NCBI GenBank assembly: GCA_036276755.1
Contig: DASUOG010000028.1
Location: 1,040 to 65,039 of the forward strand
Origin: Candidatus Saccharimonadales bacterium
Lineage (GTDB): Bacteria > Patescibacteriota > Saccharimonadia > Saccharimonadales > 2-12-FULL-41-12
Reading direction: 5' to 3'
DNA: 64,000 bases
Of the stretch, positions 6,960 through 32,400 are shown piece after piece (positions within the stretch are counted from its first letter, which is position 1; the number at the start of each line of letters is the position of its first letter). Below the pieces are notes generated by a model that was given only the letters and a program-made list of their open reading frames with translations, did not search any database and had not been told where the DNA came from. The position numbers and the translations under genes were made by a program.

Positions 6960-6982
6960 AGGCTATTGTTTAATACTTATGG

Positions 6983-7642: not shown

Positions 7643-7687
7643 TCTTACCTATCTTTTGATATTAACTTTAGCATTTTGCAGTAGAAA

Positions 7688-9862: not shown

Positions 9863-9895
9863 TAAGAGGTATCTCCTATGGCCTATTTGATGCTT

Positions 9896-11402: not shown

Positions 11403-12623
11403 CTAGCCTATTATATTTTTACCGGCCAACCCGTAAATCGGTAGCAGCACGGCTGCGACCACTACGAACGCTACTATTCCGAGCATAATCATCAGCACCG
11501 GCTCGATTATGGTCGATACGGTCTTTATCTGATTATCGACTTCCTTTTCATAGTAATCGGCAGTTTTGGCAAGCATATCTTCCAAGGAACCGGATTCTTC
11601 CCCTATGCGCAGCATGTTCGGGAGCAAAGGAAGAAAGTTCGGATCCCCCTCCAGAGAATCGGCGAGCGACTTGCCGCCTTTTACCTTTTCCGTAGCCTTT
11701 TTGATTGATCTTTCTATATGCACATTATTGATGGACCTGCCGACGACTTCCAACATTTTAATCAAGGGGATCCCGCTGGCAACCAGTGTAGTACCGGTGC
11801 GGGCAAAACGGGCCATGTATATCTTCATGAACAGAGGGCCTATCGGCCAGACGGTCATCTTTATCCTATCTACAACTTCCCTCCCCGGTCCGGTGCGGGC
11901 ATAACGTGTCATTAAGAAGGCTAGGAAAGCCATCACGATCAATATCACCCACCAAAAATCGCTGACAAAATGCGATATCGCCAGCAATATCCTAGTTATC
12001 AGAGGTAAAGACGCGCCGGGTATGTCCTTATAAATTATCTCCACCTGCGGCATGACTTTGACCACCATGAAGGTTACCACTGCCAGCATCACCAGGATAA
12101 CTATCGCCGGATAAGCCATCGCACCACGGACCTTGCTTAATATCTCGGCATCCTTCTCTTGTTGAAAGGCTATGCGTTCCAAGGACTTATCAAGCGTACC
12201 GGACACTTCACCGGCGGCAATCATACTGACATAAACGTCGTTAAAAACCATCGGATGAGCCGCTAGCGCATCTGAGAAGGCCTTGCCTCCTTCGACATCC
12301 GATATGACTTGGTTGAGCACTACCTTGAAGGACTTGTTAGGGGTCTGGTTTTGTACGTTACGAAGGCTCTGGACCAAAGGCAGACCGGCATTTATCAAGG
12401 TTGACATCTGGCGGGAAAAAACAACTTTATCCTTGGTTTTTATCCTGTTATGAAACCTCGATACCGGGTTACCGGAAGACTCGTCAAGGACCTTGATAGT
12501 GAGCGGAGCCAAGCCTTCTTTTTGGATCAGTTTGGCAGCAGCGGCTTCATTATCGGCCTGGACCTGTGCCTTGACTTTGTGCCCGGTCGAAGGGTCCCGT
12601 GCCGTGTAAGTAAAGGTCAGCAT
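11403..12623 (-). CDS. pilC: type IV pilus platform protein (GspF/PilC family)
   Basis: Duplicated T2SSF domains, 3 TM helices, motifs FSRQMSTLINAGLPLVQSL and MLRIGEESGSLEDML. Confidence 0.9.
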   Translation of the reverse strand: MLTFTYTARDPSTGHKVKAQVQADNEAAAAKLIQKEGLAPLTIKVLDESSGNPVSRFHNRIKTKDKVVFSRQMSTLINAGLPLVQSLRNVQNQTPNKSFKVVLNQVISDVEGGKAFSDALAAHPMVFNDVYVSMIAAGEVSGTLDKSLERIAFQQEKDAEILSKVRGAMAYPAIVILVMLAVVTFMVVKVMPQVEIIYKDIPGASLPLITRILLAISHFVSDFWWVILIVMAFLAFLMTRYARTGPGREVVDRIKMTVWPIGPLFMKIYMARFARTGTTLVASGIPLIKMLEVVGRSINNVHIERSIKKATEKVKGGKSLADSLEGDPNFLPLLPNMLRIGEESGSLEDMLAKTADYYEKEVDNQIKTVSTIIEPVLMIMLGIVAFVVVAAVLLPIYGLAGKNIIG

Positions 12624-12624
12624 G

Positions 12625-13695
12625 TCAGCCCCTCATGAGCCTGTCTAGCTCTTCCAGGTCTACGGCAAAATTACGGGCTTCCTCATAAGTAATAGTCCCG
12701 GCATGTATCAGACTTACCAGTGTCTTATCCATAGATTGCATACCATGCTCTCCGCCGGTTTGGATAACCGCGTCCAGTTGATGGCTTTTACCTTCGCGCA
12801 CGATGTTTCTGACCGCCGGTGTGGCAATCAGTATCTCCGCAGCGGCTACTCGGCCGCCGCCGATGGTAGGAATAAGTCTTTGCGAACAAATAGCCATAAG
12901 GATGTTACTAAGCTGGGCCCGGATTTGGGGCTGTTGGTGAGGTGGAAACACATCGATCATACGGTCGATACTTTGGGCCGCACTGTTGGTATGCAAGGTT
13001 GCGAACACCAGATGTCCGGTCTCGGCAATAGTTATAGCTGCGGCTATGGTCTCAAGGTCGCGCATTTCGCCGATGAGCACCACGTCCGGATCCTGCCTAA
13101 GGCTGCTTCTTAAGGCCGCTGAGAAGGAATAAGTATCATAATGAACTTCGCGCTGGACAATTACTGATTTTTTACTCTTATGCGTGTATTCGATAGGGTC
13201 TTCTATAGTCACGATGTGCGATGGACGCTCTTGATTGATCTTATCGACCAAAGAGGCCAAAGTGGTCGACTTACCGGAACCGGTAGGACCGGTAACCAGC
13301 ACCAGTCCGCGCGGATATTCGGCGAATTTTTCTACTATCTTCGGTAGTCCCAGCTGTTGAGTCGTGCGTATTTCGTTAGGAATCAGGCGCAAAGCGGCTG
13401 CCAGGTTACCTCGTTCATGGAAAGCATTGACACGGAACCGGCCGAGATCGCCGAATGCGAAACTGAAATCAAATTCCTTGTCCTTAAGCAATATCTGTTT
13501 CTGCTCATCATCAAGGATGGCAAATACTAACGATTCTACCAACTCTTCGGTTAAAACAGGCGTGCCGTTAATAGCCACCAGGCTGCCGTCGATTCTCAGC
13601 ATAGGCGGTAAGCCGACTTGTATATGCAAATCAGACGCGTTTTTCTTAATCACATCTTCGAGCAGTAGTTCGATTCTCAGTTCACGTTGGGTCAT
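12625..13695 (-). CDS. pilT: twitching-motility retraction ATPase
   Basis: ASDLHI, Walker A GPTGSGKSTT, Asp box, Walker B VLIGEMRD, His box LVFATLHTNSA, AIRNIVREGK-like motif. Confidence 0.92.
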   Translation of the reverse strand: MTQRELRIELLLEDVIKKNASDLHIQVGLPPMLRIDGSLVAINGTPVLTEELVESLVFAILDDEQKQILLKDKEFDFSFAFGDLGRFRVNAFHERGNLAAALRLIPNEIRTTQQLGLPKIVEKFAEYPRGLVLVTGPTGSGKSTTLASLVDKINQERPSHIVTIEDPIEYTHKSKKSVIVQREVHYDTYSFSAALRSSLRQDPDVVLIGEMRDLETIAAAITIAETGHLVFATLHTNSAAQSIDRMIDVFPPHQQPQIRAQLSNILMAICSQRLIPTIGGGRVAAAEILIATPAVRNIVREGKSHQLDAVIQTGGEHGMQSMDKTLVSLIHAGTITYEEARNFAVDLEELDRLMRG

Positions 13696-13717
13696 TTTTA
13701 TTTCCTTATTTTCCTTC

Positions 13718-15511
13718 CTAGGCGCTATCCTCTGCCGCTACGCGGTTAACTTCAGCTACCGAAGTGTACCCTGACAGGGCCTTCAGGTATCCGTCTTCGC
13801 GCATATTTACCATGCCTTGGGCAATCGCGGCTTTTTGTATTTCGCTGCTGGTCGAATGCTTCAGGATCAGCTGCTGAATCGTCTCATCAACGTGGAAGAC
13901 CTCATATAACCCCATACGACCTTTATACCCCCCTGGTGTTTCTGGGCTGTCTTTACCCTTGAACAAAGTATAACCGTTTTGGCTGGCCAGTGGCAAGTCC
14001 GGGAAACCTAAGTCCTGACTGATGGCCTTACGCGATGCCTCATCCTTGGCGAGCAATCTGCCGACGCTTTTTCTAATAGCTTCGGTCTCGGTTATATCGG
14101 ACTGGTATCTCTCCTTGTTGTCTGCCAGGCGCCGTACCAGACGCTGGCCTATGACCGTATGCACGGTCGAGGCTATCAAAAACGGTTCTATACCCATATC
14201 AAGAAGCCGGGGTAATATTCCGGAGGCGGAATTAGTATGCAGGGTAGAAAATACCAGATGGCCGGTCAGGGCCGCCTGTACCGCCAAGGTTGCCGTTTCC
14301 TTGTCCCTGATTTCCCCTACCATAACTACGTCCGGATCCTGGCGCAATATGGATCTCAGGCCGGACGCGAATGTCAGTCCTACCGCCGGATTGACCTGGA
14401 TCTGATTGATACCTTCCATCTTGTATTCGACCGGGTCTTCCAGGGTTACGATATTTATTGCATCATTCTTGATTTCCTGCACCATCGCATAAAGTGACGT
14501 CGACTTTCCCGAACCGGTCGGACCGGATGTGAGTATCATACCGTTCGGCCGCTGGATACTGTTTCTTATCATCCTCAATGCACGTCCGTGGTAGCCCATG
14601 TCCTCAAGCTTCAGACTCGTCCCGGTCTTATCAAGTAACCTGATGACTACCTGTTCGCCCCATACGACCGGCGATATGGCTATGCGCAGGTCGATAGCCG
14701 TATTCTTATTTATCGCGACCGTGAATCCGCCGTCCTGAGGGATTCTGTGTTCGTCGATTTTTAGGTTGCTCAATATCTTTATGCGCGAAATAAGCGGTGG
14801 TTCGGTTGATTTGGGAAGCTTCATTATTTCCCGTAGGACACCGTCTATCCGACAGCGTATCTTCAGCTCCTTTTCCAGCGGTTCGATATGTATATCACTG
14901 GCCCGGTGTTTGGCGGCATACTCCAAAATTGTGGAAAGCGCCTTGCTGATGGGTGAATCCTGTACTATGGTTTTTATCTTTTTCTCGGATTTCTTATCGG
15001 GTTCGACCTGGGCCTGCTGGGCCTCCATGGAATCGCTCATTACCTTGGCCACATCGGCTTCTACGTCCTCCGCATACTGGCTTAAGATCTGGCGGATGCC
15101 TTCCTCGCTGGCCGTGTAGACCTTGACCGGCCGGTTAATCCTCTTAGCCAAATAGTCGACAGCTTGGACATTGTCGGCGTCCAGCATGGCCACTACCAGC
15201 CGGCCCTTTATTTGCCCCAGGGGTACGGCCATGTATCTTTCTGCTATTTCCTTGGGTATGAGCCTTAACACCCTTCTATCGATACGAGCATCCGTCAGGT
15301 TGACATACGGTACGTGGTTAACCTGGGCGATGACTTTGGTCAAAGCCTCGTTGGGCAGATGGCCTTCTTTGACTAAGAAACCGAAGAAAGGGGTAGAAGA
15401 ATTCCGAGCTTTTTCTTTGAGAGCTGCAAGCCTCTCACGGGTTATATAGCCCTCGCTTATCAGATTTTCTTCGACCAGCTTTTGGTTTGCTACTGATAAA
15501 ACACTCATCAA
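13718..15511 (-). CDS. pilB: type IV pilus assembly ATPase (GspE/PilB family)
   Basis: N-terminal T2SSE_N domain, ASDIHIEP, Walker A GPTGSGKST, VMVGEIRD, LVFSTLHTNSA. Confidence 0.92.
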   Translation of the reverse strand: MMSVLSVANQKLVEENLISEGYITRERLAALKEKARNSSTPFFGFLVKEGHLPNEALTKVIAQVNHVPYVNLTDARIDRRVLRLIPKEIAERYMAVPLGQIKGRLVVAMLDADNVQAVDYLAKRINRPVKVYTASEEGIRQILSQYAEDVEADVAKVMSDSMEAQQAQVEPDKKSEKKIKTIVQDSPISKALSTILEYAAKHRASDIHIEPLEKELKIRCRIDGVLREIMKLPKSTEPPLISRIKILSNLKIDEHRIPQDGGFTVAINKNTAIDLRIAISPVVWGEQVVIRLLDKTGTSLKLEDMGYHGRALRMIRNSIQRPNGMILTSGPTGSGKSTSLYAMVQEIKNDAINIVTLEDPVEYKMEGINQIQVNPAVGLTFASGLRSILRQDPDVVMVGEIRDKETATLAVQAALTGHLVFSTLHTNSASGILPRLLDMGIEPFLIASTVHTVIGQRLVRRLADNKERYQSDITETEAIRKSVGRLLAKDEASRKAISQDLGFPDLPLASQNGYTLFKGKDSPETPGGYKGRMGLYEVFHVDETIQQLILKHSTSSEIQKAAIAQGMVNMREDGYLKALSGYTSVAEVNRVAAEDSA

Positions 15512-18215: not shown

Positions 18216-18305
18216 ATAACCAACTCCTCAACCGAGCTACGGTGCGTATTCTTAGGGGTAAATTGTATTTTAGTTTGTTTTTTTCGTTTAATCATCGCTG
18301 CCCAC

Positions 18306-18322
18306 CCTCTCCCGATGAGAGG
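18306..18322. repeat. GC-rich hairpin CCTCTC-CCGAT-GAGAGG in the pilM 5' region
   Basis: Inverted repeat seen directly. The flanking ...GGGTGGGCAGCG... (minus strand) resembles motifs in the element at 54488-54557. Confidence 0.5.
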
Positions 18323-18340
18323 CAATCTTATAATATTCGA

Positions 18341-18349
18341 ATTATATCA
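18341..18349 (-). promoter_or_regulatory. extended -10 promoter element (TGATATAAT) upstream of pilM
   Basis: The minus strand reads ttaTGATATAATtcg, in the 182-nt gap between the 940-aa gene stop and the pilM start. Confidence 0.4.
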
Positions 18350-18397
18350 TAAGCACAATAATAACAAAGCATTTCTATACCAGGTTTTTTATCGTGC

Positions 18398-21220
18398 CTA
18401 CAATACCGGAGGCAGTGTGGTGATGTAGTCGTACGGCTGGCCGCCGGTTCCCTCTTCGAATTTGGTTTCATAATAGAGGTACACTTCGGGCGTGAAGTTG
18501 AAAATCTCAGCGGCATTGGTACCGGTGCCGGTATTGAAGTTCGGTGTCTCTCTTCTTACCGAATCCCTCAAGGAGTCGGCTACTCTTAGGAATTTGACGT
18601 CCTTCGCTACGAAAGCACCGTTGATAACCAGCTGGGTACGGCACCTGTTATAAAGGTTCGACGTCGGCACGGCGTGGGCGCCGCCTTCAGCACAGGTATA
18701 AATATTGCCCCCATCGGTATGATCCCTGGGCTGAGCTACGTACAAGCCGTCCAAACGAGTTACGTTCCTGTTGATATAAATATCCCCCTTGACTATTATC
18801 GTGAGGTATTCGCGGAAGGGGAAGGTTATATTACCGTTGATAACCACGTCTCCGCTGACAAACAGAGCGGCTTTTTTGTTGAAACTACCGCCGTTGATAG
18901 TCAGGTCGCCATTTTTGAACGATTGTTCTCCGTCAGGCAGACTGTTGATGTTGATAGTCGATCCGGATACCGTAGCGGCTCCGGCCTTTAGGTCGGAGTA
19001 AAAGTCATTAGAACATATGACCTGGCCGGCATAATTGCCACCGTCATTTGGCTCGTCTTCGCCTTGACTACCGGTAGTGCCGGCAGTATTGGCCAAACTT
19101 AGCCCGTGCGGCCAGATAGGCGCGGATATACGGACACTGGCACTGCCGAACCCGGATATCTGCTCAAACGCCAGTGCGGCGAACTGGACACCGGAACCGC
19201 CCTTGCCGGCTTCGGTGGAACGATAAGCCTTGATGCCTTGGCCGCTGCCATCGCTACTGCAGGTATCGCCCGTCCTAAAGCCTACGCCGGATATGACATC
19301 AGAGCCGTAAACATGCATATAAGGCCGGTCATAGACGTAACTACAATCAGTCATCGGCGGATAGTCGCTGTTCGTGTATCTGAATTCATTATTCGGTCCT
19401 ATCCAACCGGACGTTTCATACACAAAGAAAAACGTACAATATTCATCACCGGCTTGGTTCGGCATGGGATTGATACTCCTGTCATAGGGTACGGTTATCC
19501 GGTCATACCCGAAGTTAACCGTATGATGCGATTGTGTTGGTTGGCCATACCGTGTCTGGCGTGCGTCCGCGTCATAATGGACGTTGAAGCCATGAGGGTA
19601 GGCGGGGTCGGAGAAACTTGTATCGACACGGCCGATAAACCGCGCATTGTTAGGATCCTCCACCGTTGGCGACAACTGGACTTCCGCCGATGGAGTCAAG
19701 CTGAAATGCTTAAACGTTTTTACATTGGCATGGCAATCAGGCCCTATACGCTCCGCGTCGAAGTAGACGGGATGGAAGGTCCATGTTTCCTCCTTTATGC
19801 TCGATGGAGCCGGCACGGTAAAGGAGAACGGATATGGGATGCCTCCCGCATAGACCTGTTCATAATTAGTGCCGCGTACGACGCCATTCTGATCCTTGAC
19901 ACCCGGCCACCAAAGCGTCAGGTTGTCCGGTGGTGGGCTATCATTGTAGAAAACACCGCTGAAGTGCATGTTGCCACCGGCAATAATTAAACCGCCCGGC
20001 CCATCACCATGGACACTCATATCGCAGCGTGCCTGAAAACAGACAACCGTATCGTGGCGCACATCGGTTATCTTATTCCACGTCGGATTAGCTACACCAT
20101 CACCGGTATTGTCCCAAAAGGCTTCCACCGTTATATCTATCCTGATGGTATTGTTCTCCGGCTGGTACCACCATTTCTTGCCCGTTTTTACGTCAGTATC
20201 ATCCTCACCCCCCGAACTGGGCACAAATTGATCTATGTTGCCATACGTCCCCCCGGGGTTGGGATCCGGATTCTCGATGTTGTTATATACATCATAGTTA
20301 GGACCGGCCCCGCCATTCTTATTGACGGTTATGTCTTGGATCACTACGTGTGTTCTCTTGCGATTACCTCCTGCTGTGCTGGTGTTCTCTATGAACGCAT
20401 TCGTACAATCGGCTTCAACCTGCCTCCTACATTGTGGCATGTGGGGATTAGTAACACAGTTTGGCGGCGGATCATTCGGTTCCCATATCAGGTTAATCCG
20501 GGCATTCTGGCCGTTTACAACGCTGAACGCATTGCTATAGTTCATAGGAAAGGCTCTCTCTTGAAGTGATCCACCGCCTGTAGATAGCTTTATTTTCCAC
20601 TCTCCGCCATATGCACCGTCAATGCCACCCGGCGTGGTTATGCTATCGATCCAGAACTGATTGTTGCGTCTATGTCCACTGGTATCGACTTCTTGGCAAT
20701 CCAAGAAAAATCCATTGCCTTTATTTTCTTCAGTCCCGGGACCTATCTCATCCCAGCCAGGGCAGCTGCCCGTAGGCGAGCTAAGGGTCCCTCCCGTATG
20801 GAACCATCTATTGTCAAATCGGCCGCTGCCAAGAGGGTACTTAAATATCCTTGCGCCTGGCCATAGGTTGGCCGGAGCGTCATATTGAGCCGGCGGCGAA
20901 CCGTAACTATAACTACGATTAACGTCGGAGTTAAGTCGATAACCGACATTCAGCTCTTTGCCACTATCCGCATTATACGCGTACACGGCTACGCTGGCGA
21001 AGTCATGCTCGATGCCGCCGTTTTGCATACCCCAATTTCCAGGCACTGTCGCAGAAGCGGAGGTGGCGGGACATTGTAACCCTGCAGCAGAAACTTTGCC
21101 GGCGCCATGAAATAATGCCACGCCCAGAAAAACGACGGCTACGACCGCCAATTTCGCTGTGAAACTAAAAATTATGTTCGATGTATTATTATAGTTGTTC
21201 TTGCGTTTTAGTTTTAGCAT
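18398..21220 (-). CDS. large secreted protein of unknown function heading the pilus block (C-terminal beta-helix-like repeats)
   Basis: 940-aa ORF. N-terminal signal/anchor (FTAKLAVVAVVFLGVALFHGAGKVSAAG). Gly/Asn/Pro/aromatic-rich. C-terminus has short repeats (GDLTINGGSF..., SGDVVINGNITF, VKGDIYINRNVT) resembling polymer-forming/bactofilin-type beta-helix turns. Confidence 0.7.
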   Translation of the reverse strand: MLKLKRKNNYNNTSNIIFSFTAKLAVVAVVFLGVALFHGAGKVSAAGLQCPATSASATVPGNWGMQNGGIEHDFASVAVYAYNADSGKELNVGYRLNSDVNRSYSYGSPPAQYDAPANLWPGARIFKYPLGSGRFDNRWFHTGGTLSSPTGSCPGWDEIGPGTEENKGNGFFLDCQEVDTSGHRRNNQFWIDSITTPGGIDGAYGGEWKIKLSTGGGSLQERAFPMNYSNAFSVVNGQNARINLIWEPNDPPPNCVTNPHMPQCRRQVEADCTNAFIENTSTAGGNRKRTHVVIQDITVNKNGGAGPNYDVYNNIENPDPNPGGTYGNIDQFVPSSGGEDDTDVKTGKKWWYQPENNTIRIDITVEAFWDNTGDGVANPTWNKITDVRHDTVVCFQARCDMSVHGDGPGGLIIAGGNMHFSGVFYNDSPPPDNLTLWWPGVKDQNGVVRGTNYEQVYAGGIPYPFSFTVPAPSSIKEETWTFHPVYFDAERIGPDCHANVKTFKHFSLTPSAEVQLSPTVEDPNNARFIGRVDTSFSDPAYPHGFNVHYDADARQTRYGQPTQSHHTVNFGYDRITVPYDRSINPMPNQAGDEYCTFFFVYETSGWIGPNNEFRYTNSDYPPMTDCSYVYDRPYMHVYGSDVISGVGFRTGDTCSSDGSGQGIKAYRSTEAGKGGSGVQFAALAFEQISGFGSASVRISAPIWPHGLSLANTAGTTGSQGEDEPNDGGNYAGQVICSNDFYSDLKAGAATVSGSTININSLPDGEQSFKNGDLTINGGSFNKKAALFVSGDVVINGNITFPFREYLTIIVKGDIYINRNVTRLDGLYVAQPRDHTDGGNIYTCAEGGAHAVPTSNLYNRCRTQLVINGAFVAKDVKFLRVADSLRDSVRRETPNFNTGTGTNAAEIFNFTPEVYLYYETKFEEGTGGQPYDYITTLPPVL

Positions 21221-21228
21221 GCTATAGC

Positions 21229-21280
21229 TCTAATGCTTATCTAAGCATAGATTGTAGCATGGATAGATGGCTATTCAACC
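21229..21280 (-). promoter_or_regulatory. promoter module type 2: TTGAAT-N16-TACAAT followed by palindrome ATGCTTA-TC-TAAGCAT (copy 1, drives the 940-aa gene)
   Basis: -35 at 21273-21278, -10 at 21251-21256 (TGCTACAAT context), palindrome at 21233-21248 over the expected +1. The 52-nt block is repeated with 1 mismatch at 23261-23312. Confidence 0.55.
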
Positions 21281-21303
21281 ATTAATTAGTAGGGAATAAA
21301 GCT

Positions 21304-22242
21304 TTAGCAGGCTCTTCTAACCCCGCCGCCTAGGACTGGGTTAATTTTATCTACTGGGTCAATTCTTACGAAAACTCTATAAGATTTTGTACCTAAGGTA
21401 TGGCCGTCTATAGCACTGTTTACCTTAAGTCGGTATACAGACTGTACGCGTGTTACGCCTTTGCCAGGAGTGCAGCGATATAGAAGTTTTTTATTTTTAT
21501 CTCCATTATATTTACTAAACCACGCTGAACCTCCCTGTCCTCCGTTACCGTCAATCGGTAAGTTATTATGTTCAAGAAGTTTGGTTTTAGATCTAAACCA
21601 CTTTTTATGATTACGCGGATTTTGGACTTTAATGAACACTTTGGGTGTTTCTCGTGCGATTAATGGACTACAGGTTTCCGAAACTGGATTTAATCTAGCA
21701 AAAACACTTACTTCTTGTTTCCTTCTATCTCCTGGGAAAATCATAACAGCTTCATTTTTCCGCTTCGGTTTCCTAAGCGCAGCCTTCACACAATCCTGTT
21801 GCAGGTCGCTGGCAGTGGCATTGGTAACCGCCGCGCCGGGAGCAGTTACGGGTTGGTCGGAAGCGTTACTTTCGCCGGAAGCGGAAGCAGGCATAGAAGC
21901 CAGTAGTGCCAGCGAGGCAGCGGTACCGGTAGCCAGCATACCTACGCGGCTGCGCTTGGCCGCAAGCAGCGTGTTTTTGCCCCAGCTTTTTAGCTTTTCG
22001 GTCATGGCCGGAGTATGTTGCTCAGTAAAAGAAGCTGTCGATTCGGTAGGTTGGTCGGGCAATGTTCCTGCAGTTTCCCCGACGCCCTGCAAGTCAGGGT
22101 TGTACGGCTCGAACCTTTGGGCAGGTTCCTGACATGATTCTGCTGGTGGAACCATTATTCTCTCAAGCACGGCTTCGGCCGAAGGCATAGTTCCTTGGCC
22201 TTTCAACATTTCACCTTGTTCGGGTGTCGCTATAGCTCCCAT
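21304..22242 (-). CDS. secreted Cys-containing protein, paralog A (unknown function)
   Basis: Internal hydrophobic signal-like segment (GMLATGTAASLALLASMPASASG). The C-terminal roughly 170 aa is clearly homologous to 23334-24098 (DLQQDCVKAAL.KPK, QNP.NHKKWF, KKLLYRCTPGKGVTRV.SVYRLKV, C-terminal Cys). GGAG RBS. Confidence 0.7.
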   Translation of the reverse strand: MGAIATPEQGEMLKGQGTMPSAEAVLERIMVPPAESCQEPAQRFEPYNPDLQGVGETAGTLPDQPTESTASFTEQHTPAMTEKLKSWGKNTLLAAKRSRVGMLATGTAASLALLASMPASASGESNASDQPVTAPGAAVTNATASDLQQDCVKAALRKPKRKNEAVMIFPGDRRKQEVSVFARLNPVSETCSPLIARETPKVFIKVQNPRNHKKWFRSKTKLLEHNNLPIDGNGGQGGSAWFSKYNGDKNKKLLYRCTPGKGVTRVQSVYRLKVNSAIDGHTLGTKSYRVFVRIDPVDKINPVLGGGVRRAC

Positions 22243-22264
22243 AATTGCTCCAAGTTATAAAGAT

Positions 22265-22293
22265 ATATTACCAGAAAAACTAAGAATAAGCAA
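22265..22293 (-). promoter_or_regulatory. promoter module type 1: TTGCTT-N17-TAATAT (drives paralog A)
   Basis: The minus strand reads acTTGCTTattcttagtttttctggTAATATatctttataacttGGAGcaattATG. The same architecture is reused at 24125-24153 and 24962-24990. Confidence 0.55.
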
Positions 22294-22308
22294 GTACTTT
22301 GTTGTTAT

Positions 22309-23253
22309 TTAAACGTAAACTTTATAGCCCAGGCGTTGCTTGGCTTGGTCCAGATACTGGGTAAAATCCATGCCTGTATAACTACCGGATGTCTGATCCA
22401 TCTTTACAACCAAGTAATATGATTCGGCGGTACTGTCACCTTCTAGAGAATTAGACACGCGCACTACGAAAGGCTTGGTAATCTCGCCGGCCTTTATGTT
22501 ATTGATCTTTTGGCGAATGGAAGCGACATTAAACACAGGTTGAGGCCTTAGGGATGTATCGAACGAACCCGAATGCGACAGCGAAGTATAGGCCTCCTTG
22601 CCAAGCCTGGGGTCGGCATGTTCCATCTTAATCGCCTGGTCAAAAGTTATCTCACCCGAAGTTATCTTGTTATATAAATCTGTAATAAAATCTTTGGCGT
22701 ATTTCTTATCCTTGGCTATAGCCTTGGGGTCGCCTAACAGCGGGTCTCTTTCTTTGTCTTCCGGCAGCGCCGGTTCGTATGCGACATGATTGCTAAAATT
22801 AGCCACCAGCATCTTGCCTTTGTAAACCCCGTTATTATGAGCCTGTAATTTTGAAAGATAGAGCTGGTTCAGCTTATTCTGGTAAGCGTATTTATAATCA
22901 GTTTTTTGTTTCAGCGTATCTTTGTCATAGCTAGCGGCAAGCTCTTTGTCGGTTACCGTTATCCCCCGCTCTTTGGCTAGCGCTTCCACCAGATATTTGT
23001 CCGCAAGCACGGTAGCCGCATCGTGTTCGCTTATATCCTTGCGCTGTCCGATCAGATCGTCTATTTCCTTCTTATATATCTTATGGCCGGCGGCCTCGGC
23101 ATAAACCTTCTCGCCCTTGCGCACTCCGTCATCGATCAATAGTGCCCATGCGGCAAAACCTAGCGCGATAATTAATAACAGACTAAGTGCTTGGACTTTG
23201 CGATTCTTAAAGTCTGGTTTTTTCAGGCCTGACGGACGTTTTAGTTTGAACAT
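22309..23253 (-). CDS. membrane-anchored SurA-N-like chaperone domain protein
   Basis: N-terminal TM (ALSLLLIIALGFAAWALLI), then a SurA N-terminal-like helical region (KIYKKEIDDLIG...YLVEALAKERGITVTDKEL). No clear parvulin domain. Confidence 0.55.
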   Translation of the reverse strand: MFKLKRPSGLKKPDFKNRKVQALSLLLIIALGFAAWALLIDDGVRKGEKVYAEAAGHKIYKKEIDDLIGQRKDISEHDAATVLADKYLVEALAKERGITVTDKELAASYDKDTLKQKTDYKYAYQNKLNQLYLSKLQAHNNGVYKGKMLVANFSNHVAYEPALPEDKERDPLLGDPKAIAKDKKYAKDFITDLYNKITSGEITFDQAIKMEHADPRLGKEAYTSLSHSGSFDTSLRPQPVFNVASIRQKINNIKAGEITKPFVVRVSNSLEGDSTAESYYLVVKMDQTSGSYTGMDFTQYLDQAKQRLGYKVYV

Positions 23254-23260
23254 GCTTTAT

Positions 23261-23312
23261 TCTAATGCTTATCTAAGCATAGATTGTAGCATGGATAGAT
23301 AGCTATTCAACC
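23261..23312 (-). promoter_or_regulatory. promoter module type 2, copy 2 (drives the SurA-like gene)
   Basis: -35 at 23305-23310, -10 at 23283-23288, palindrome ATGCTTATCTAAGCAT at 23265-23280. Confidence 0.55.
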
Positions 23313-23333
23313 GATATCGTGAAAGCTTAATTT

Positions 23334-24098
23334 CTAGCAGGGACCTTTAACTCCGCCATTCAGAACTGCTTTACCTGGTAACGGTCTTATTTTGACAGGC
23401 ACAGTATATGACTTCCGACCTAAGGTACGTCCATCTACGCTACTGGCTACTTTCAGTCTGTAAACAGACTTTACGCGTGTTACACCTTTGCCAGGAGTAC
23501 AGCGGTAGAGGAGTTTTTTGTTTTTTAATGTGATGTTTCTATCATTTCTATATGCGCCAAGGTCTACACCACCAATACCGCCTTTATTGCCAATTGGTAG
23601 ATAATCAACAATGTCTTTAAGTACTTGCGGTTTGGTTTTAAACCACTTCTTATGATTATTTGGGTTCTGAATCTTAAAAATCAGCGTGGGAGTTTTCCTA
23701 GTTACTACAGAGAGACAGGCTTCGGCAGTCGGCTCGAATTCCCCTCGAGCTTGCATAAGTTGCTGTTGATTGTTGCCGGGATAAGTCATACCGGAAAATC
23801 GTATTTTTGGCTTCTTTAAAGCAGCTTTCACACAATCCTGTTGCAGGTCGCTCGTAGTAGCGTCGGATAAAGAATGTTCAACCACTTGGCTTGTCGCAAC
23901 TGAAGCCGGAGCGGAAAACGACTCTATGTTCCTGGCAGGCGCCTCATTGAACGCGGCAAGCGCCGCCTTTTCAGTATCAGCCGAGTCTTCATTAGCCAAT
24001 GCATTACCTGCAGGCAAGAAAAAAGCTGCACTTGCTAACAAAGCAATGCCTTTACCTAATCTTCTTTGGGTTGGATCAACTTCACCTGCTGGAAGCAT
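23334..24098 (-). CDS. secreted Cys-containing protein, paralog B (start re-assigned to ATG 24098)
   Basis: The track ORF starts at 24182 but would then overlap the GNAT stop and its own promoter. ATG at 24098 (MLPAGEVDPTQRRLGKGIALLASAAFFLPAGNALA) has GGAG 9 nt upstream. The C-terminal domain is homologous to 21304-22242. Confidence 0.65.
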   Translation of the reverse strand: MLPAGEVDPTQRRLGKGIALLASAAFFLPAGNALANEDSADTEKAALAAFNEAPARNIESFSAPASVATSQVVEHSLSDATTSDLQQDCVKAALKKPKIRFSGMTYPGNNQQQLMQARGEFEPTAEACLSVVTRKTPTLIFKIQNPNNHKKWFKTKPQVLKDIVDYLPIGNKGGIGGVDLGAYRNDRNITLKNKKLLYRCTPGKGVTRVKSVYRLKVASSVDGRTLGRKSYTVPVKIRPLPGKAVLNGGVKGPC

Positions 24099-24124
24099 AT
24101 TTAAAAACTCCGAATTATAAAGAT

Positions 24125-24153
24125 ATATTACCAGATTTATGATTATTTTGCAA
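24125..24153 (-). promoter_or_regulatory. promoter module type 1 variant: TTGCAA-N17-TAATAT (drives paralog B)
   Basis: The minus strand reads TTGCAAaataatcataaatctggTAATATatctttataattcGGAG. The -10 and 5'UTR are nearly identical to the module at 22265-22293. Confidence 0.5.
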
Positions 24154-24157
24154 AGTC

Positions 24158-24937
24158 CTACTCGGGCTGGGGTTCGCGCCACATAAAGTGCAGATCTTCG
24201 GTAGCGCCCATATAACGGCCCCAGGCAATGACCTCAAAGCCGTTGCGCTCATAAAGCGGTATGCTTTGAGGCGTGGATGCTTCCAAATAGGCCGCTTCGC
24301 CTTTGGCGTCGCATTCATCCAGGACAACCTTCATCAATGCGTCGCCCCAGCCCATACCTTGCCAATCGGGACTAAGCCCTACCATTGCCAAGTATCTGTG
24401 CAATCTCCACCGATGTTCGATTTCTCCATGCTTATCTTCTGTAAAATCTAGAACACGCCGCAAACGAGCAGCTTCCGCGGGAGTTATTACACCTATTAAT
24501 GACTTTGCTATACGCGCCATGGTAGCTAAACTGGCCTTCCAATTGCCTTGGTCGGTCCAGGCAGCGGCGCCGGATCGTTGTTCGTTGGTATGTACGACGC
24601 CATTCGGCAGCCATTCATGTTTGATGAAGCTTAAAATACCATGCCCCAGCCGTGACAGTTTTTTATCTTCGTCCCTGATCATATAGGAAAAGTGCGGGTC
24701 ATGCTCAAAGGCTTCGGCAAGCGACTGAGCCACCTGAGGTAATTCCTCGGCTGTAACTACATGGATGCCGTTGTCACTGTCAGGCGCCGGTCTGTCCTCC
24801 GACCCTGGAGGCGGCACCATATCAGCAAGCATCGACGGCGACGGATCAATAAGGTTGCCGGCCTTTACGCTAAGGTCGTGCGCCATGACTTCAAAACTTG
24901 GAGGGATTTTCTCCCTTGCGGCTTCCAATATAGGCAA
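24158..24937 (-). CDS. GNAT-family N-acetyltransferase
   Basis: Acetyl-CoA-binding region YLAMVGLSPDWQGMGWGDALMKVVLDECD, then YLEASTPQSIPLYERNGFEV. TTG start with GGAG 8 nt upstream. Confidence 0.8.
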   Translation of the reverse strand: MPILEAAREKIPPSFEVMAHDLSVKAGNLIDPSPSMLADMVPPPGSEDRPAPDSDNGIHVVTAEELPQVAQSLAEAFEHDPHFSYMIRDEDKKLSRLGHGILSFIKHEWLPNGVVHTNEQRSGAAAWTDQGNWKASLATMARIAKSLIGVITPAEAARLRRVLDFTEDKHGEIEHRWRLHRYLAMVGLSPDWQGMGWGDALMKVVLDECDAKGEAAYLEASTPQSIPLYERNGFEVIAWGRYMGATEDLHFMWREPQPE

Positions 24938-24961
24938 ACTTGAATCTCCGTAATTATTTAT

Positions 24962-24990
24962 ATATTACCATAATCAGTAAGAATAAGCAA
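24962..24990 (-). promoter_or_regulatory. promoter module type 1: TTGCTT-N17-TAATAT (drives the GNAT gene)
   Basis: The minus strand reads acTTGCTTattcttactgattatggTAATAT. The -35 half (acTTGCTTattctta) is identical to the module at 22288. Confidence 0.5.
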
Positions 24991-25031
24991 GTTACCGCCC
25001 TCTGCTTGTGCCGCAAAAAGTTATCCGGAGC

Positions 25032-25151
25032 CTAGGTCTGGCCGCGGTAAAAAAGAAATAAAGCGACAAGAATGCATATAGATACAATTACGACCAACAG
25101 TTCCAGCAAGGTATAACCGGCTTGTCCGTTGGGTAGCTTAGGATGTCTCAT
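25032..25151 (-). CDS. 39-aa stand-alone prepilin N-terminal domain peptide (mini-pilin or pilin gene remnant)
   Basis: Not in the ORF track (below 60 aa). MRHPKLPNGQAG|YTLLELLVVIVSICILVALFLFYRGQT*: class III signal with Gly at -1 and Glu at +5, then only the hydrophobic alpha1 helix. TGCTATCAT box 11 nt upstream. Confidence 0.4.
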   Translation of the reverse strand: MRHPKLPNGQAGYTLLELLVVIVSICILVALFLFYRGQT

Positions 25152-25241
25152 CTTTAGCAAATATGATAGCACCGTTTATATAATTATGTTACGGCTTAAG
25201 CGTTTTTGCTATACTTAAAACAATTACAGGAAAAGCCAAAT

Positions 25242-26087
25242 ATGGAAACAAACAAACAAACAAAAACAGGTTTGGCCAAGTATTTGCCGATCTGGATGGC
25301 TATCTTGCTGTTGTTGGTTATTTTTCTCGCCCCTACGGTCGGTGCGCTTACTACCCTATCCCAGGGCTACTACTCTAACGATAAGGTCGCCTTAGGCTCT
25401 ATCGTCAGCCTTAAGAGCAAGTCGTCCGATCAAGTGGTAGCGTCGACAAATTCCACTTCTGACAGCATGCTGGGAGTCATCATAGATAACGGGAATTCCC
25501 TGCTGTCGCTCAAGAGCGGCAAGGACGAGCAGGTCCAGGTAGCGACAAACGGGACGGTGCAAGTATCGGTTTCCGATATTAACGGGGAGATAAATAAGGG
25601 GGATCACATCACTGCCTCTCCGATCAAAGGCGTGGGCATGAAAGCGACCGGTAACACCAAGGTCATCGGCATAGCCCAGGACAATCTTTCTGAAAACGAA
25701 TCAAGTCAACAGACCTATACAGATAAAGGCGGTGAGCAAAAGATCATAAAACTCGGTCAGGTGCCGGTTATAGTAAATGTCTCTTATTACTACAAACAGC
25801 CCGACAAGACATTGATACCTTCCGCCATTCAGAATATCGCCAACGCCCTAGCCGGCAAACAGGTAAACGCTACGCCCATCCTCATCAGCGCGGGAATTTT
25901 CATAATCACTCTCATCGTAGTCGTCAGCATCGTTTATTCAATGATCCACAGTAGCATCATTTCGGTCGGTCGTAATCCGATGTCCCAAAAGGCCATATAC
26001 CGCGATCTTATACAATTATCAGTACTGGTTATGGTTATACTTGTAGTAGCCTTAATATCAATATATATGGTACTTACGAAGTTTTGA
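25242..26087 (+). CDS. membrane protein: N-terminal TM, extracytoplasmic beta-rich domain, C-terminal two-helix hairpin; first gene of the ATP synthase operon
   Basis: ATG at 25242 (METNKQTK) with an AGGA-like RBS; the track lists an upstream TTG at 25206. Its stop lies 1 nt before the b-like gene. The C-terminal hairpin is ...IFIITLIVVVSIVYSMIHSSIISVGRNPMSQKAIYRDLIQLSVLVMVILVVALISIYMVL. Confidence 0.6.
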   Translation: METNKQTKTGLAKYLPIWMAILLLLVIFLAPTVGALTTLSQGYYSNDKVALGSIVSLKSKSSDQVVASTNSTSDSMLGVIIDNGNSLLSLKSGKDEQVQVATNGTVQVSVSDINGEINKGDHITASPIKGVGMKATGNTKVIGIAQDNLSENESSQQTYTDKGGEQKIIKLGQVPVIVNVSYYYKQPDKTLIPSAIQNIANALAGKQVNATPILISAGIFIITLIVVVSIVYSMIHSSIISVGRNPMSQKAIYRDLIQLSVLVMVILVVALISIYMVLTKF

Positions 26088-26088
26088 C

Positions 26089-26703
26089 ATGAGTTTTTTG
26101 CAAATATTACTGGTTATAAACGCATTCTTCATTGGCATGCTCTCGGCCATCGCCTTGCGGCATGCCCTGGCCCATTTCAAACCCCACGTGCATGACGGCG
26201 AAAAACGCCATGCTCGTACGCCTCAGCAGAACGGACATCTGCCGCCGGCGATCCGGGAAAAATTACTCGAAGAAGCACAGGCGAATTTCCATTTGATGTT
26301 AAGGCGTTCGGCAAAGGAGCTGGAAAAGGATTTGGAAGTTACCACCACGAAAATCCATCAGACACTGGAAAAAGAAGGTAACGATGCTATCCGCCATCAG
26401 GTAAAGTTATACCGTGACCGGTTGACTCAGCTGCAGGAACAGACAGAAGACAATATCGCCGATATTGGTAAAGACCTCTCCTCTCATCAGACTGAACTCA
26501 AAGCAAAACTTGCCGAAGAGATAGAAGTCGAGAAAAAGCGCCTGATCCAGCAGATAGATACCAAGCTGGCCGATGCCGTGGGATCGTTCTTAACGGAAAC
26601 TTTGCAGCACAATATAGATTTAGGCGCCCAGAGCGATTATCTGAAGAAAATGTTGGAGGAACACAAGGCCGAAATCGCCAAAGAGGTGTCCAATGAAAGT
26701 TAA
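26089..26703 (+). CDS. atpF: F-type ATP synthase peripheral-stalk subunit b-like protein
   Basis: Single N-terminal TM, then a long charged coiled-coil. Sits immediately upstream of delta. The call is by topology and position only. Confidence 0.55.
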   Translation: MSFLQILLVINAFFIGMLSAIALRHALAHFKPHVHDGEKRHARTPQQNGHLPPAIREKLLEEAQANFHLMLRRSAKELEKDLEVTTTKIHQTLEKEGNDAIRHQVKLYRDRLTQLQEQTEDNIADIGKDLSSHQTELKAKLAEEIEVEKKRLIQQIDTKLADAVGSFLTETLQHNIDLGAQSDYLKKMLEEHKAEIAKEVSNES

Positions 26704-27178
26704 GCTGGACGGCAGCGTAGCTTCTCCGCAGGATTTGAAAACCTTGATACTAGAGATGCGTGGTTATGCGCACTGGTTCTCGCAGAACGCGGTAAAAAAA
26801 CGCCTTAACGCAAAAAGCGCATCGGAAAAGCCGGATTTATCCGTGGCGGCGGAAAGCCTGATCCGCGATTTGAACCAAAAAAAATCGCTCGACCGCAAAG
26901 GTCTGGATGAATTGATAGCCGACCTGGAAGAATTCGCAGATACTGCGCCGCGGCTTAACGTCACCCTCGCCGCACCACCGGTAAGAGGACTCAAAAAAAC
27001 ATTGGTTAACTGGCTACGTGAAGAGATATCCCCGGAAATATTAGTAACATTTGATTTCAATTCTACCTTGCTCGGGGGCATGGTTCTGCGCTGTGGCAGC
27101 CGGATCTTTGACTGGTCCCTACGCCGTCAGATCCTGGATGAACGCGCACGTTTCCCGGAGGTATTGCGGAATGCATGA
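26693..27178 (+). CDS. atpH: F-type ATP synthase subunit delta (OSCP)
   Basis: C-terminal pattern LVTFDFNSTLLGGMVLRCGSRIFDWSLRRQI matches the OSCP C-terminal signature. Position is between the b-like gene and alpha. Confidence 0.7.
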   Translation: MKVKLDGSVASPQDLKTLILEMRGYAHWFSQNAVKKRLNAKSASEKPDLSVAAESLIRDLNQKKSLDRKGLDELIADLEEFADTAPRLNVTLAAPPVRGLKKTLVNWLREEISPEILVTFDFNSTLLGGMVLRCGSRIFDWSLRRQILDERARFPEVLRNA

Positions 27179-28669
27179 AAACCAGACTTTTCAACGTTTG
27201 GTTGAAGCAGACAACCTGACCGGCGAAGTAGTGGCCTCCAACAGTTTCATCATAGAAGTCAAGGGTTTAGAAGGTGTACGTCTGGGGGCTCAAGTATTGT
27301 TCGAAGACGGTCAGCGCGGGCTGGTCCGGGAAGCTTATAAAGATCGGGTGGTCTTGTTCAACATCGATTCCGAAAAAATCGAGCCGGGTACCTTGGCTGT
27401 CGTGGAAAATGAGGAGTTAAACGTGCCCGTGGGTAAAAAGCTGGTCGGCCGGGTCGTTTCGCCAATGGGCGACCCGCTCGATGGTAAGGGAGCCATAAGA
27501 TCCACCGCAAAATCCGGTATCTTCAATGACGCTCCGGGCATCATGGAACGAAACCCGCTAAATGAACAGTTGGCAACCGGCGTTACGGCGATCGATATGT
27601 TTTTCCCAGTGGTCTTGGGTCAGCGCATTGCTATTTTAGGCGATAGCAAATCCGGTAAAAGCACCGTATTGAGCCAATTGAGCGCCAGTCAGGCCGGCAC
27701 CGACCGGGTAGTTGTTTATGTCCTTATCGGCAAGCGCAAAGTGGACATAGAAAATTTATTGTCCGGACTGCGCGCCTCCGGTGCCATGGATCACACCATA
27801 GTGGTGCTCGCCAACATATTTGATTCGCTGACACAGTCATATATAGCGCCTTACGCCGCCTGTGCCATGGCGGAGTATTTATGGAACAATGGCCAGGATG
27901 TAATAATAATTTACGACGACCTGACCTCTCATGCCGAAGCTTACCGCCAACTTTCATTGCTCCAAGAGGTCGATCCGGGCCGGGACTCTTATCCCGGGGA
28001 TATATTTTATGCCCACTCCAGCCTGCTGGAGCGCGCCGGAAAATTAAAAAAAAGCAACAAGACATTGACCGCCTTACCGGTGGTAATGACCCCAAGCGAT
28101 GACATCACCGCATATTTATCGACCAATATAATGTCGATCACCGACGGACAGATAATCCTTGATCTCGGTGTCTTCCGGAAAGGCATACGACCTGCCGTGA
28201 ACGCCGGACTATCGGTCTCACGGGTCGGCGGCCAGGCACAAACCGTCCGCCAGAAAAGACTTACCGGCAGCCTATTCCAAAAGCTCGCCAAATATCACCA
28301 AGCCGAAGAATTCTCGCATTTCGGAGCCAGACTTTCCAAAGAAGCTACCATTGATCTCCTGCTGGGAAAGCAGATTTATGAAGCGCTCAGACAGCCGCCG
28401 GAAGAACGCCACTCGCTAGCCGAACAGCAATTGATGCTGGAAACCATCTTGCTTGCCGGTGGCGAAACAGAGCTCGACATAGCCGGCCTAAAAGAAGCCG
28501 TCAAAACCGTCGCCTCAAAAGCCAAAGACGAAAAAGATTTTGACCGCATTGAAGCCGAGCTGCTCAAAAAACATTCTGCCAAAGCGAAAGCAGTGGATGA
28601 CAAACAATCGGCCGGCAAAAAGAAAAAAGAAAAAAGTAGCGCAAAAGCCGCTAAAGGCAAGGAAAATAA

Positions 28670-28673
<4 letters not shown>
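27171..28673 (+). CDS. atpA: F-type ATP synthase subunit alpha (start re-assigned to ATG 27171)
   Basis: Alignable by eye with E. coli alpha across the protein: P-loop GDSKSGKST (canonical GDRQTGKT), IIYDDLTSHAEAYRQLSLL, PGDIFYAHSSLLERA, SITDGQI, RPAVNAGLSVSRVGG. GGAGG lies 10 nt upstream of 27171. Lys-rich C-terminal tail. Confidence 0.9.
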
Positions 28674-30975
<2,302 letters not shown>

Positions 30976-30989
30976 CCCAGGGAATACTT

Positions 30990-31253
30990 ATGAGCCATAA
31001 AGATGAAGATGAAGAACTGACCGTCATCGCCCGAGCACCGTTTCATATATATTATGAAGGTCCCGCGGATGTCGTCACGGCGACCAATAAAGTCGGCCAG
31101 TTCGACATCCTACCCGGCCATGCTGATTTTTTCTCCATATTAAACCCTGGCGATGTTCTGATTGAAACCAAAACCAAGTCCTTGAACTTTCATATATCAA
31201 ACGGTATCGTCGCCGTCCGCGATAACGAGGTCATGCTGTTCGTCAATATGTAG
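30990..31253 (+). CDS. atpC: F-type ATP synthase subunit epsilon (beta-sandwich domain only)
   Basis: 87 aa with the pattern GQFDILPGHADFFSIL...NGIVAVRDNEVMLFV. Lacks the C-terminal helical hairpin. Confidence 0.75.
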   Translation: MSHKDEDEELTVIARAPFHIYYEGPADVVTATNKVGQFDILPGHADFFSILNPGDVLIETKTKSLNFHISNGIVAVRDNEVMLFVNM

Positions 31254-32274: not shown

Positions 32275-32400
32275 CTATTTTTACCTTTTGTTTTTAATGC
32301 TTTAGTTAGTATACCGCTTAAGTTAACGGGCTACAAATCATTTCAGCCCCGGACGGCCTTGCTGTTTGCAAAATCATTATGTTTCGTCAACAATTAAACT

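Follow-up and report, generated by a model that had tools for sequence, protein, structure and literature searches.

Why should a promoter-like sequence stand, almost unchanged, before two different genes of the same genome? The question is raised by a 64-kb stretch of a Candidatus Saccharimonadales metagenome-assembled genome (contig DASUOG010000028.1; hereafter the window, about 7% of this genome), in which a 52-nucleotide (nt) module occurs upstream of a gene for a 940-amino-acid (aa) secreted protein that heads a block of type IV pilus genes, and again upstream of a gene for a 314-aa, SurA-like membrane-anchored protein. A first-pass annotation of the stretch had seen in each copy a promoter followed by a palindromic operator, through which a dimeric DNA-binding protein would control a small regulon. 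Our analysis confirms the repeat, argues strongly for the promoter, and finds that the palindrome belongs to a longer predicted RNA hairpin that reaches from the -10 box to the start codon. The explanation that we favor combines a fold-back insulation of translation, modeled on this hairpin, with an origin of the two copies by duplication and gene conversion; we rate the chances of this combination as about even.

A repeat search pairs 21229-21280 with 23261-23312 as direct repeats of 52 nt and 98% identity, with 51 of 52 bases the same, and reading of the sequence agrees that the single mismatch, a G/A difference, is where the annotation had placed it. According to a consensus scan, the minus strand of both copies reads GG-TTGAAT-N16-TACAAT-CT-ATGCTTAGATAAGCAT-TAGA, the last three spacer bases being TGC. 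In module A, the copy before the 940-aa gene, the -35 hexamer TTGAAT (consensus scan) lies at 21273..21278, the extended -10 element TGC-TACAAT, 16 nt from the -35 and with its TG flagged by the scan, at 21251..21259, and the 7-2-7 palindrome ATGCTTAGATAAGCAT, which overlaps the predicted transcription start, at 21233..21248. The corresponding features of module B, before the SurA-like gene, are found at 23305..23310 and 23283..23291 (-35 TTGAAT and extended -10 TGC-TACAAT, both by consensus scan and alignment) and at 23265..23280 (palindrome ATGCTTAGATAAGCAT), all on the minus strand as in module A. An ATG follows 8 nt past each 52-mer, at 21220 for the 940-aa open reading frame (ORF) and at 23253 for the 314-aa ORF, which leaves 12 and 11 nt, respectively, between palindrome and ATG. 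The annotation was thus right that one copy stands before the gene that heads the pilus block and the other before the SurA-like gene, and that the two genes share the same control sequence, the modules before them being 51/52 identical.

The 28-nt promoter core has exactly two copies in the 64 kb, against 0.00 expected from shuffles, and the palindrome ATGCTTANNTAAGCAT, searched in the window with up to two mismatches, also has exactly two, against 0.26 expected. Within the window, neither a mismatch search nor a weight matrix added to these sites; the next best match (32297-32312) has only AAGCATTA in common with the element, looks like chance and was set aside. A dispersed repeat of the REP/MITE-like kind is not indicated either, with two copies in 64 kb that stand before the same two genes at every locus. 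In a genome collection, the -10 box plus palindrome (TAHAATNNATGCTTANNTAAGCAT) gave nine matches, all in unrelated taxa (Elizabethkingia, Sulfurimonas and others), which we take as chance, as this collection evidently lacks the lineage. The pattern ATGCT(N0-1)AGATAAGCATTAG gave 13 matches in metagenomes, none of them in a promoter context; the metagenome match L018 is a lipoprotein gene of 33% GC with a normal Shine-Dalgarno sequence. The scan of a viral collection gave no match.

To place the module in its family, 12 related loci were collected with the SurA-like protein as query, and 14 modules from 10 loci were brought together in an alignment, A2. A module lies upstream of the SurA-like ortholog in L010, L012, L014, L016, L030, L031, L034 and L036, whose proteins share 48-72% identity, and a second copy lies upstream of the large gene in L010, L012 and L014; counted over all relatives, 11 loci have the module at the orthologous promoter. 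The SurA-like proteins of this module clade begin with M.KLK. A sister clade (L035 and L037), where the protein begins with MADTK, has kept the TGCTATAGT box and a variant of the element, and a clade with a long N-terminus (L032 and L033) is without the module. Read 5' to 3', the footprint left by A2 consists of TTGAAY, a 16-nt spacer, TGCTAnAnT, 1-3 variable bases, (A/G)TGC-TAG-N(1-2)-TAAGCATTAG, 8-12 variable bases ending in R-G-Y, and the ATG. The -35 is TTGAAY in 12 of the 14 modules, and TGCTAnAnT is invariant in all 14, with TGC-TAYAWT also present in L037. The two boxes are separated by 16 nt in 11 modules out of 14 (one has 15 nt, one has 14, and L035 is unclear). The spacer sequence itself is approximately random between loci, with about 5/13 positions identical; the start-site element, about 20 nt long, has 16-19 of its 18-20 positions identical in every comparison between loci.

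This conservation of the boxes, while the spacer has been randomized between loci, strongly supports the promoter proposed by the annotation: the orthologs retain TTGAAT, TGCTAYAWT and the element that follows it, with 16 nt of variable sequence between the two boxes. All sequence features of the sigma-70-type extended -10 class are present, and each copy is very probably a promoter of this class. As in other extended -10 promoters (TGn or TRTGn), TTGAAT is followed by a 16-nt spacer with a TG one base before TAYAWT, and other promoters of the locus (P2, TGGTAATAT, and that of pilM, TGATATAAT) are of the same class. Two features set the module apart from that class, namely that the 'n' of its TGn is an invariant C, and that conservation over about 20 nt beyond the -10 equals that of the box. 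A second promoter, in which TAGAAT would be the -10 of a leaderless mRNA, was considered and rejected: it has no -35, TAGAAT is not conserved (TAGAGC, TAGTAC and TAGGAT occur instead), and its distance from the ATG is not constant (5-9 nt).

What, then, is the conserved sequence after the -10 box? The 16-nt palindrome proves to be the tip of an inverted repeat of about 45 nt, which extends from the -10 region to the ATG. In module A this long imperfect repeat, CAUGCUA...UAGCAUG, occupies 21218..21261 on the minus strand, with the -10 box inside its 5' arm and the AUG of the 940-aa gene inside its 3' arm; in module B the repeat CAUGCU...AGCAUG (23251..23293, minus strand) takes in the AUG of the SurA-like gene. 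RNAalifold predicts on A2 two nested helices, an outer one that pairs (C/U)(A/G)UGCU with RGY-AUG, start codon included, and an inner one made of AUGCU and AGCAU. Pairing is found in 97.4% of 154 cells and falls to 20-45% on sliding the 3' partners by 1-3 columns. Variable stem positions change by wobble-compatible transitions (18 G·U cells versus 3 A·C and 1 U·C), and the ATG is preceded by R-G-Y, the very combination of bases able to pair with GCU.

Folding of single sequences from the -10 region to ATG+6 gives -8 to -20 kcal/mol for the 14 modules. Their z-scores are all negative, from -0.6 to -5.5, and reach -3.2 or lower in 7 of 14, compared with +0.9 to -2.0 for the other promoter and leader regions of the same loci, which served as control. 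In 12 of the 14 modules, and in L035 and L037 too, the minimum-energy structure has the AUG paired. For the window, module A folds at -16.0 kcal/mol (z -3.2 to -3.4) and module B at -14.4 kcal/mol (z -4.2 to -4.4). In longer contexts of 131-136 nt the hairpin persists for copy B (136 nt), L031 and L037; copy A refolds, with its AUG still paired. The 5-bp inner stem taken alone was discarded as an RNA hairpin, being weak (z -0.2 to -0.6) and free of covariation, and a search of Rfam with 20800-25200 returned no known RNA family, only two chance matches to long non-coding RNAs (E>0.09).

The strongest evidence for an RNA hairpin comes, according to these predictions, from the sister clade. Sequence and register are different in L035 and L037, yet a hairpin of 16 bp that stretches from -10 box to AUG is predicted there as well. 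Their sense strands fold at -19.8 and -18.1 kcal/mol (z -4.7 and -3.9), and the antisense strands at -12.0 and -11.7 kcal/mol (z -1.0 and -0.1). Over the alignment, 9 of the 14 modules fold more stably on the sense strand, by a mean of 1.5 kcal/mol. A DNA palindrome would be symmetric with respect to strand, so this asymmetry argues for an element that acts as RNA rather than as DNA.

These comparisons bear directly on the operator, that is, on the idea that the start-site palindrome binds a dimeric repressor shutting both promoters together. Within a well-supported promoter, the palindrome extends from about -4 to +12 and, like operators of the lac O1 or LexA-box type that lie over +1, forms an inverted repeat centered just downstream of the -10; moreover, ATGCT...AGCAT with its core GCTAGATAAGCA is almost invariant across loci whose spacers are randomized, a degree of conservation more to be expected of a site bound by protein than of a plain hairpin. 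Unlike in those operators, however, the half-sites vary in spacing, the register shifts between clades and the symmetry is biased to one strand. The annotation had made the presence of the palindrome in orthologous promoters its own test, and the outcome is divided: ATGCT...AGCAT is kept in the closest clade, but the perfect 7-2-7 form, which arises by a 1-nt insertion of a T, is confined to this genome, and the sister clade uses another register. Among relatives, ATGCT-N5-AGCAT is found in 8 modules and ATGCT-N6-AGCAT in 6, a change of spacing that involves at least three independent 1-nt insertions at different places of A2. In place of ATGCT/AGCAT, which they have lost, L035 and L037 contain (T)GCTAG-N7-CTAGC(A), so that the half-sites differ and the center has moved by 3 nt. 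The conserved 3' flank TTAG has no symmetric partner, and it is G·U pairs that make the symmetry strand-biased. Dyad symmetry over the start site is present, without conserved half-site sequence and spacing.

The proposed small regulon is not supported. Across the related DNA, which amounts to about 240 kb, modules account for 12 occurrences of ATGCT-N5-6-AGCAT; the two others are both in coding sequence, and a weight-matrix scan of the same DNA gave no further site. No helix-turn-helix (HTH) domain was detected among the 30 proteins scanned in the window, which covers about 7% of the genome, and no regulator is conserved in synteny. The two supposed regulon members derive, as detailed below, from a single ancestral operon. 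Together with the longer inverted repeat, the sense-strand bias and the inclusion of the start codon, which suit RNA better than DNA, these results take away most of the positive evidence for an operator and leave that reading weak; we consider a repressor site unlikely, noting that it could coexist with an RNA hairpin. A resemblance to a Fur box or to a sigma-28 -10 box was a poor match and was dropped.

How could a hairpin that includes both the -10 box and the start codon work? We propose that a strong housekeeping-type promoter (TTGAAT, 16 nt, TGC-TACAAT) sits in the 5' arm of the hairpin of about 45 nt, the 3' arm of which would hold the start codon of the gene that this promoter drives. 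From promoter geometry, we take the transcription start to be an A or G located 7-9 nt after TACAAT. Transcripts from the module's own promoter would then begin inside the hairpin, and since the 5' arm holds the -10 hexamer, they could not contain that arm; their leader would be short, unstructured and devoid of a Shine-Dalgarno sequence, and their AUG would be free. Leaders folded from the predicted start are unstructured, at -3 to -6 kcal/mol with z-scores near 0. By contrast, transcripts reading through from a strongly promoted upstream gene would hold both arms, fold back and mask the AUG, such that translation of the SurA-like and 940-aa proteins would depend on their own promoter only. 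The module is preceded in nearly all loci, at a distance of 23-90 nt, by the end of a co-directional gene that has a strong extended -10 promoter, and a terminator scan of the window found no terminator-like site between the upstream stop codon and the module.

Transposase genes of the insertion sequences (ISs) IS10 and IS50 are subject to fold-back inhibition of read-through transcripts. In IS200, a 5' structure of tnpA masks the start signals (PMC4513863). The module resembles these systems in having an inverted repeat with its 3' arm over the translation start, and in the proposed behavior of its transcripts, as its own promoter would fire inside the repeat and only outside transcripts would fold and be silenced. 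It differs from them in several respects: the genes concerned are cellular (chaperone-like, large secreted, and beside pilus genes) rather than transposases, it is the -10 box that serves as 5' arm, and masking would affect the AUG rather than a Shine-Dalgarno sequence. Its genes, SurA-like and large secreted, are in conserved synteny with pilMNO and are not transposase genes of an IS; the module is not a member of the IS10/IS50 family, although it may work like one.

Several observations weigh against fold-back insulation. Not one pair has changed on both sides in a compensatory way, three inner-stem pairs out of five are invariant, and the control by shuffling was uninformative. The hairpins of several TACAAT-form modules (L010b, L014b, L034 and L036) are weak, with z-scores of -0.8 to -1.9, and for the window's own copies folding favors the antisense strand. 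Variation in the 5' arm (Y-R before TG) would presumably be allowed in part by a TRTG-type extended -10 box as well, as in Gram-positive promoters. Finally, GCTAGATAA(G/A)CA is near-invariant in all 16 modules, in stem or loop alike, which structure alone does not explain; this suggests a sequence-specific reader (protein or polymerase) or overlapping promoter constraints. A fuller proposal, in which the promoter lends its own -10 box to the 5' arm of an AUG-masking hairpin that insulates the gene from its neighbors, and the invariant GCTAGATAAGCA is the site of a putative factor setting the expression of the chaperone-like/large-secreted pair beside the type IV pilus genes, is put forward tentatively.

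The same near-invariance could be taken to mean that the module is a promoter and nothing else, the bases after the -10 being kept for start-site selection, as initially transcribed sequence and as a ribosome-loading leader without Shine-Dalgarno, with the complementarity to the AUG incidental. Conservation of GCTAGATAA in both clades, whether in stem or loop, fits this well, and so does the coding start. The first six SurA-like codons (ATG-NCA-AAA-CTA-AAA-C, AAACTAAAAC; A2 columns 72-87, window 21204-21226 and 23237-23259) are conserved at synonymous sites across loci of 48-72% protein identity, which suggests a constraint at the nucleotide level on the coding start and on translation initiation. 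In addition, a Shine-Dalgarno-like motif precedes about 71% of genes in the relatives and never a module-driven gene. A promoter alone would nevertheless leave unexplained the R-G-Y rule before the ATG, the invariant C of TGC and the hairpin re-created in L035 and L037, as well as z-scores down to -5.5 where other promoters of the same loci are at about 0, and we hold it to be quite improbable.

As the hairpin lies, at nearly every locus, 23-90 nt past the stop codon of a co-directional gene, one may further ask whether it serves the upstream gene, as a terminator-like or stabilizing stem-loop or as an RNase processing site at its 3' end that overlaps the next promoter. The region has no canonical terminators (7 terminator-like sites were found versus 10.9 expected), which leaves room for such a role. 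Yet the stem is followed by A-rich coding sequence instead of a U-tract, its 3' arm always includes the AUG, needless for a terminator, and the module stays with the SurA-like gene even where the upstream position is taken by a GNAT gene (L036) or by a different small gene (L035), or where no co-directional gene precedes it (L014). We therefore regard a 3'-end element as very unlikely. An intrinsic, Rho-independent terminator in particular was rejected: the scan does not call one, and the AU-rich stem lacks a U-tract and runs into A-rich coding sequence.

Less probable still is that the element is read as a leaderless mini-ORF, ATG CTA GAT AAG CAT TAG (MLDKH*), with re-initiation at the main AUG. 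The 14 aligned modules do contain an ATG or GTG followed by a stop in frame, and the two substitutions of L035 are synonymous in that frame; however, the 1-nt insertions change the peptide to MLV*, MLE* or MLR*, and L037 has ATT in place of ATG. From promoter geometry, the A of this ATG, only 2-4 nt after the -10 hexamer, is presumably too close to serve as start site. The frame changes and the ATT of L037 led us to reject the mini-ORF.

There remains the question of why there are two copies. The 52-mer is the best-conserved core of a diverged segmental duplication of about 1.1 kb, with a mean column identity of 72%. As delimited by repeat families and alignment, copy A of the duplication (21204..22295, minus strand) is made of a P2 promoter, the gene for paralog A, module A and six first codons, MLKLKR; copy B (23237..24155, minus strand) is made of a P2 promoter, the gene for paralog B, module B and the codons MFKLKR. 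The duplication must be old, as the proteins of paralogs A and B are only 48% identical. In L016, L030, L031, L033, L034 and L035, the SurA-like gene overlaps a gene for a protein of 929-1123 aa by 8-17 nt, and there is one module at most; over the outgroups as a whole, the overlapping large genes encode 929-1181 aa. By BLASTP, the 940-aa protein of the window is the ortholog of these overlapping large proteins, which start at about its residue 13-17. It and a 933-aa protein have 12-16 extra N-terminal residues, and the first codons of the 940-aa gene resemble those of the SurA-like gene. Taken together, the extra residues, the SurA-like type of first codons and the overlap in outgroups show, at the level of sequence comparison, that an ancestral operon of the SurA-like and large genes was split in this clade by an inserted duplicate cassette consisting of promoter, paralog gene, module and first six codons. 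The copied promoter would have kept the downstream large gene expressed after the split.

Age of the duplication and near-identity of the modules are reconciled when the spacers are compared within loci: the two copies agree at 12/13 positions in the window, 10/13 in L012, 8/13 in L010 and 5/13 in L014. Likewise, the TACAATCT form is found at both window sites and TATATTAA at both sites of L012. This within-locus identity, with the shared site forms, is a signature of gene conversion in the lineages of the window and of L012; on these comparisons, the 51/52 identity is partly a product of concerted evolution, and not of selection alone. As in other segmental promoter duplications with gene conversion, the unit carries its own promoter and copies within a genome are closer than orthologous copies; what differs here is that an operon was split and the first six codons of one gene were grafted onto another. 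In L012, the ortholog of the 940-aa gene (11865-14641) is broken into three ORFs of 153, 375 and 295 aa, reflecting a pseudogene or an assembly error; the module before it is still intact and homogenized with the SurA-like copy.

The order on the minus strand is GNAT gene, paralog B, module B, SurA-like gene, P2 promoter, paralog A, module A, 940-aa gene and pilM, followed by pilN, pilO ... pilB, pilT, pilC, pilD and pilins. In the ORF list, the 940-aa gene (18398..21220, minus strand), whose product has an N-terminal signal-like hydrophobic segment, lies directly upstream of pilM; its protein has no Pfam match. The 314-aa gene (22309..23253, minus strand) encodes a membrane-anchored protein with remote, sub-threshold similarity to SurA/PrsA. 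Its label is weakly supported: the matches to SurA_N_3 (E=0.0015) and Rotamase (E=0.0056) are both below the Pfam cut-offs, yet they recur in 13 and 11, respectively, of 38 homologs. Searches of PDB sequences with both the 940-aa and the SurA-like proteins gave nothing significant, even with a 38-sequence profile. Paralog A (312 aa, secreted or anchored; 21304..22242) and paralog B (252 aa from the ATG at 24092; 23334..24092) are the co-directional minus-strand genes upstream of modules A and B, respectively; transcripts of paralog A would run on into module A.

These two genes (21304-22242 and 23334-24092) belong to a family of secreted or anchored proteins that evolves fast; its members are 190-370 aa long, with 1-3 copies beside the SurA-like gene depending on the locus (in L031, at 5713-7931). 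The family has a conserved cysteine-containing C-terminal domain (…YRCTPGKGVT…) that ends with GGGV(K/R)xAC-stop and has no Pfam match. The P2 promoter, TTGCTT-N17-TGG-TAATAT followed by an ACGGAG Shine-Dalgarno sequence, has three minus-strand copies in the window (22263-22295, 24123-24155 and 24960-24992), against 0.07 expected, which precede paralog A, paralog B and the GNAT gene; it is kept before the same gene family in L012, L014, L016 and L031. Examined as further cases of a promoter-in-hairpin design, the P2 promoters show no significant hairpin, their TTCTG/CGGAG complementarity being weak and non-significant (z +0.3 to -1.6). A third conserved promoter-like motif, (C)ATGCTTGACCTCTGTT...TAAA-TGnTA, is absent from the window and lies before other members of the paralog family in relatives (L010 at about 9150-9180 and at 11030-11070, L012 at about 9100, L014 at about 9890-9925, L030 at about 6750, L034 at about 4930 and L036 at about 6960). 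In L014, where the paralog gene has been lost, a remnant of this motif is found directly upstream of the SurA-like module.

The pilM gene has its own conserved extended -10 promoter, GTGCTTATGATATAAT, with a leader of about 125 nt (18216-18360, minus strand). This leader contains a conserved hairpin, GCCTCTC-N4-GAGAGG followed by GTGGGC, and the hairpin plus GGGTGGGC recurs in L010, L012, L031 and L034. It also contains a lysine/arginine-rich ORF of 27 codons (ATG at 18296), the stop of which overlaps the pilM start. At the other end of the locus, between the GNAT gene and an ATP synthase operon, a 39-codon ORF with a prepilin-like N-terminus (…NGQAG/YTLLELLVVIV…) is found at 25031-25150 on the minus strand, with TGCTATCAT upstream. 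The ATP synthase operon (25206-31000, plus strand; OSCP and gamma subunits identified) is divergent to the locus, as in L012 and L014; in L010, L016 and L031 its genes are replaced as neighbors by YchF and an ATP-binding cassette (ABC) transporter, which indicates that the region has been rearranged among relatives. A tRNA scan of the whole window found one tRNA.

Type IV pilus machinery has been tied to host attachment by other work. To our knowledge, almost nothing is known of promoters or gene regulation in Saccharibacteria or other Patescibacteria, and our literature searches found no mapping of transcription start sites in Saccharibacteria. A recent study of type IV pili in Saccharibacteria/Patescibacteria counts their regulation among the open questions (PMC11623550). 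Against this background, the module provides a phylogenetically footprinted promoter consensus, TTGAAT-N16-TGnTAYAWT, and a concrete, testable cis-element before two genes that are conserved beside pilMNO. It is a well-conserved cis-regulatory module of a known general kind, found in a phylum where such elements are essentially undescribed. Its history offers an example of an operon that was split without loss of co-expression, the promoter having been duplicated along with the inserted gene. The practical value is modest and lies in promoter and leader parts for new genetic systems in the phylum, the mechanism being a computational prediction. The module is also a candidate for fold-back insulation outside mobile elements and, if this is true, the hairpin would make translation promoter-specific in the terminator-poor, tightly packed genomes of Saccharibacteria.

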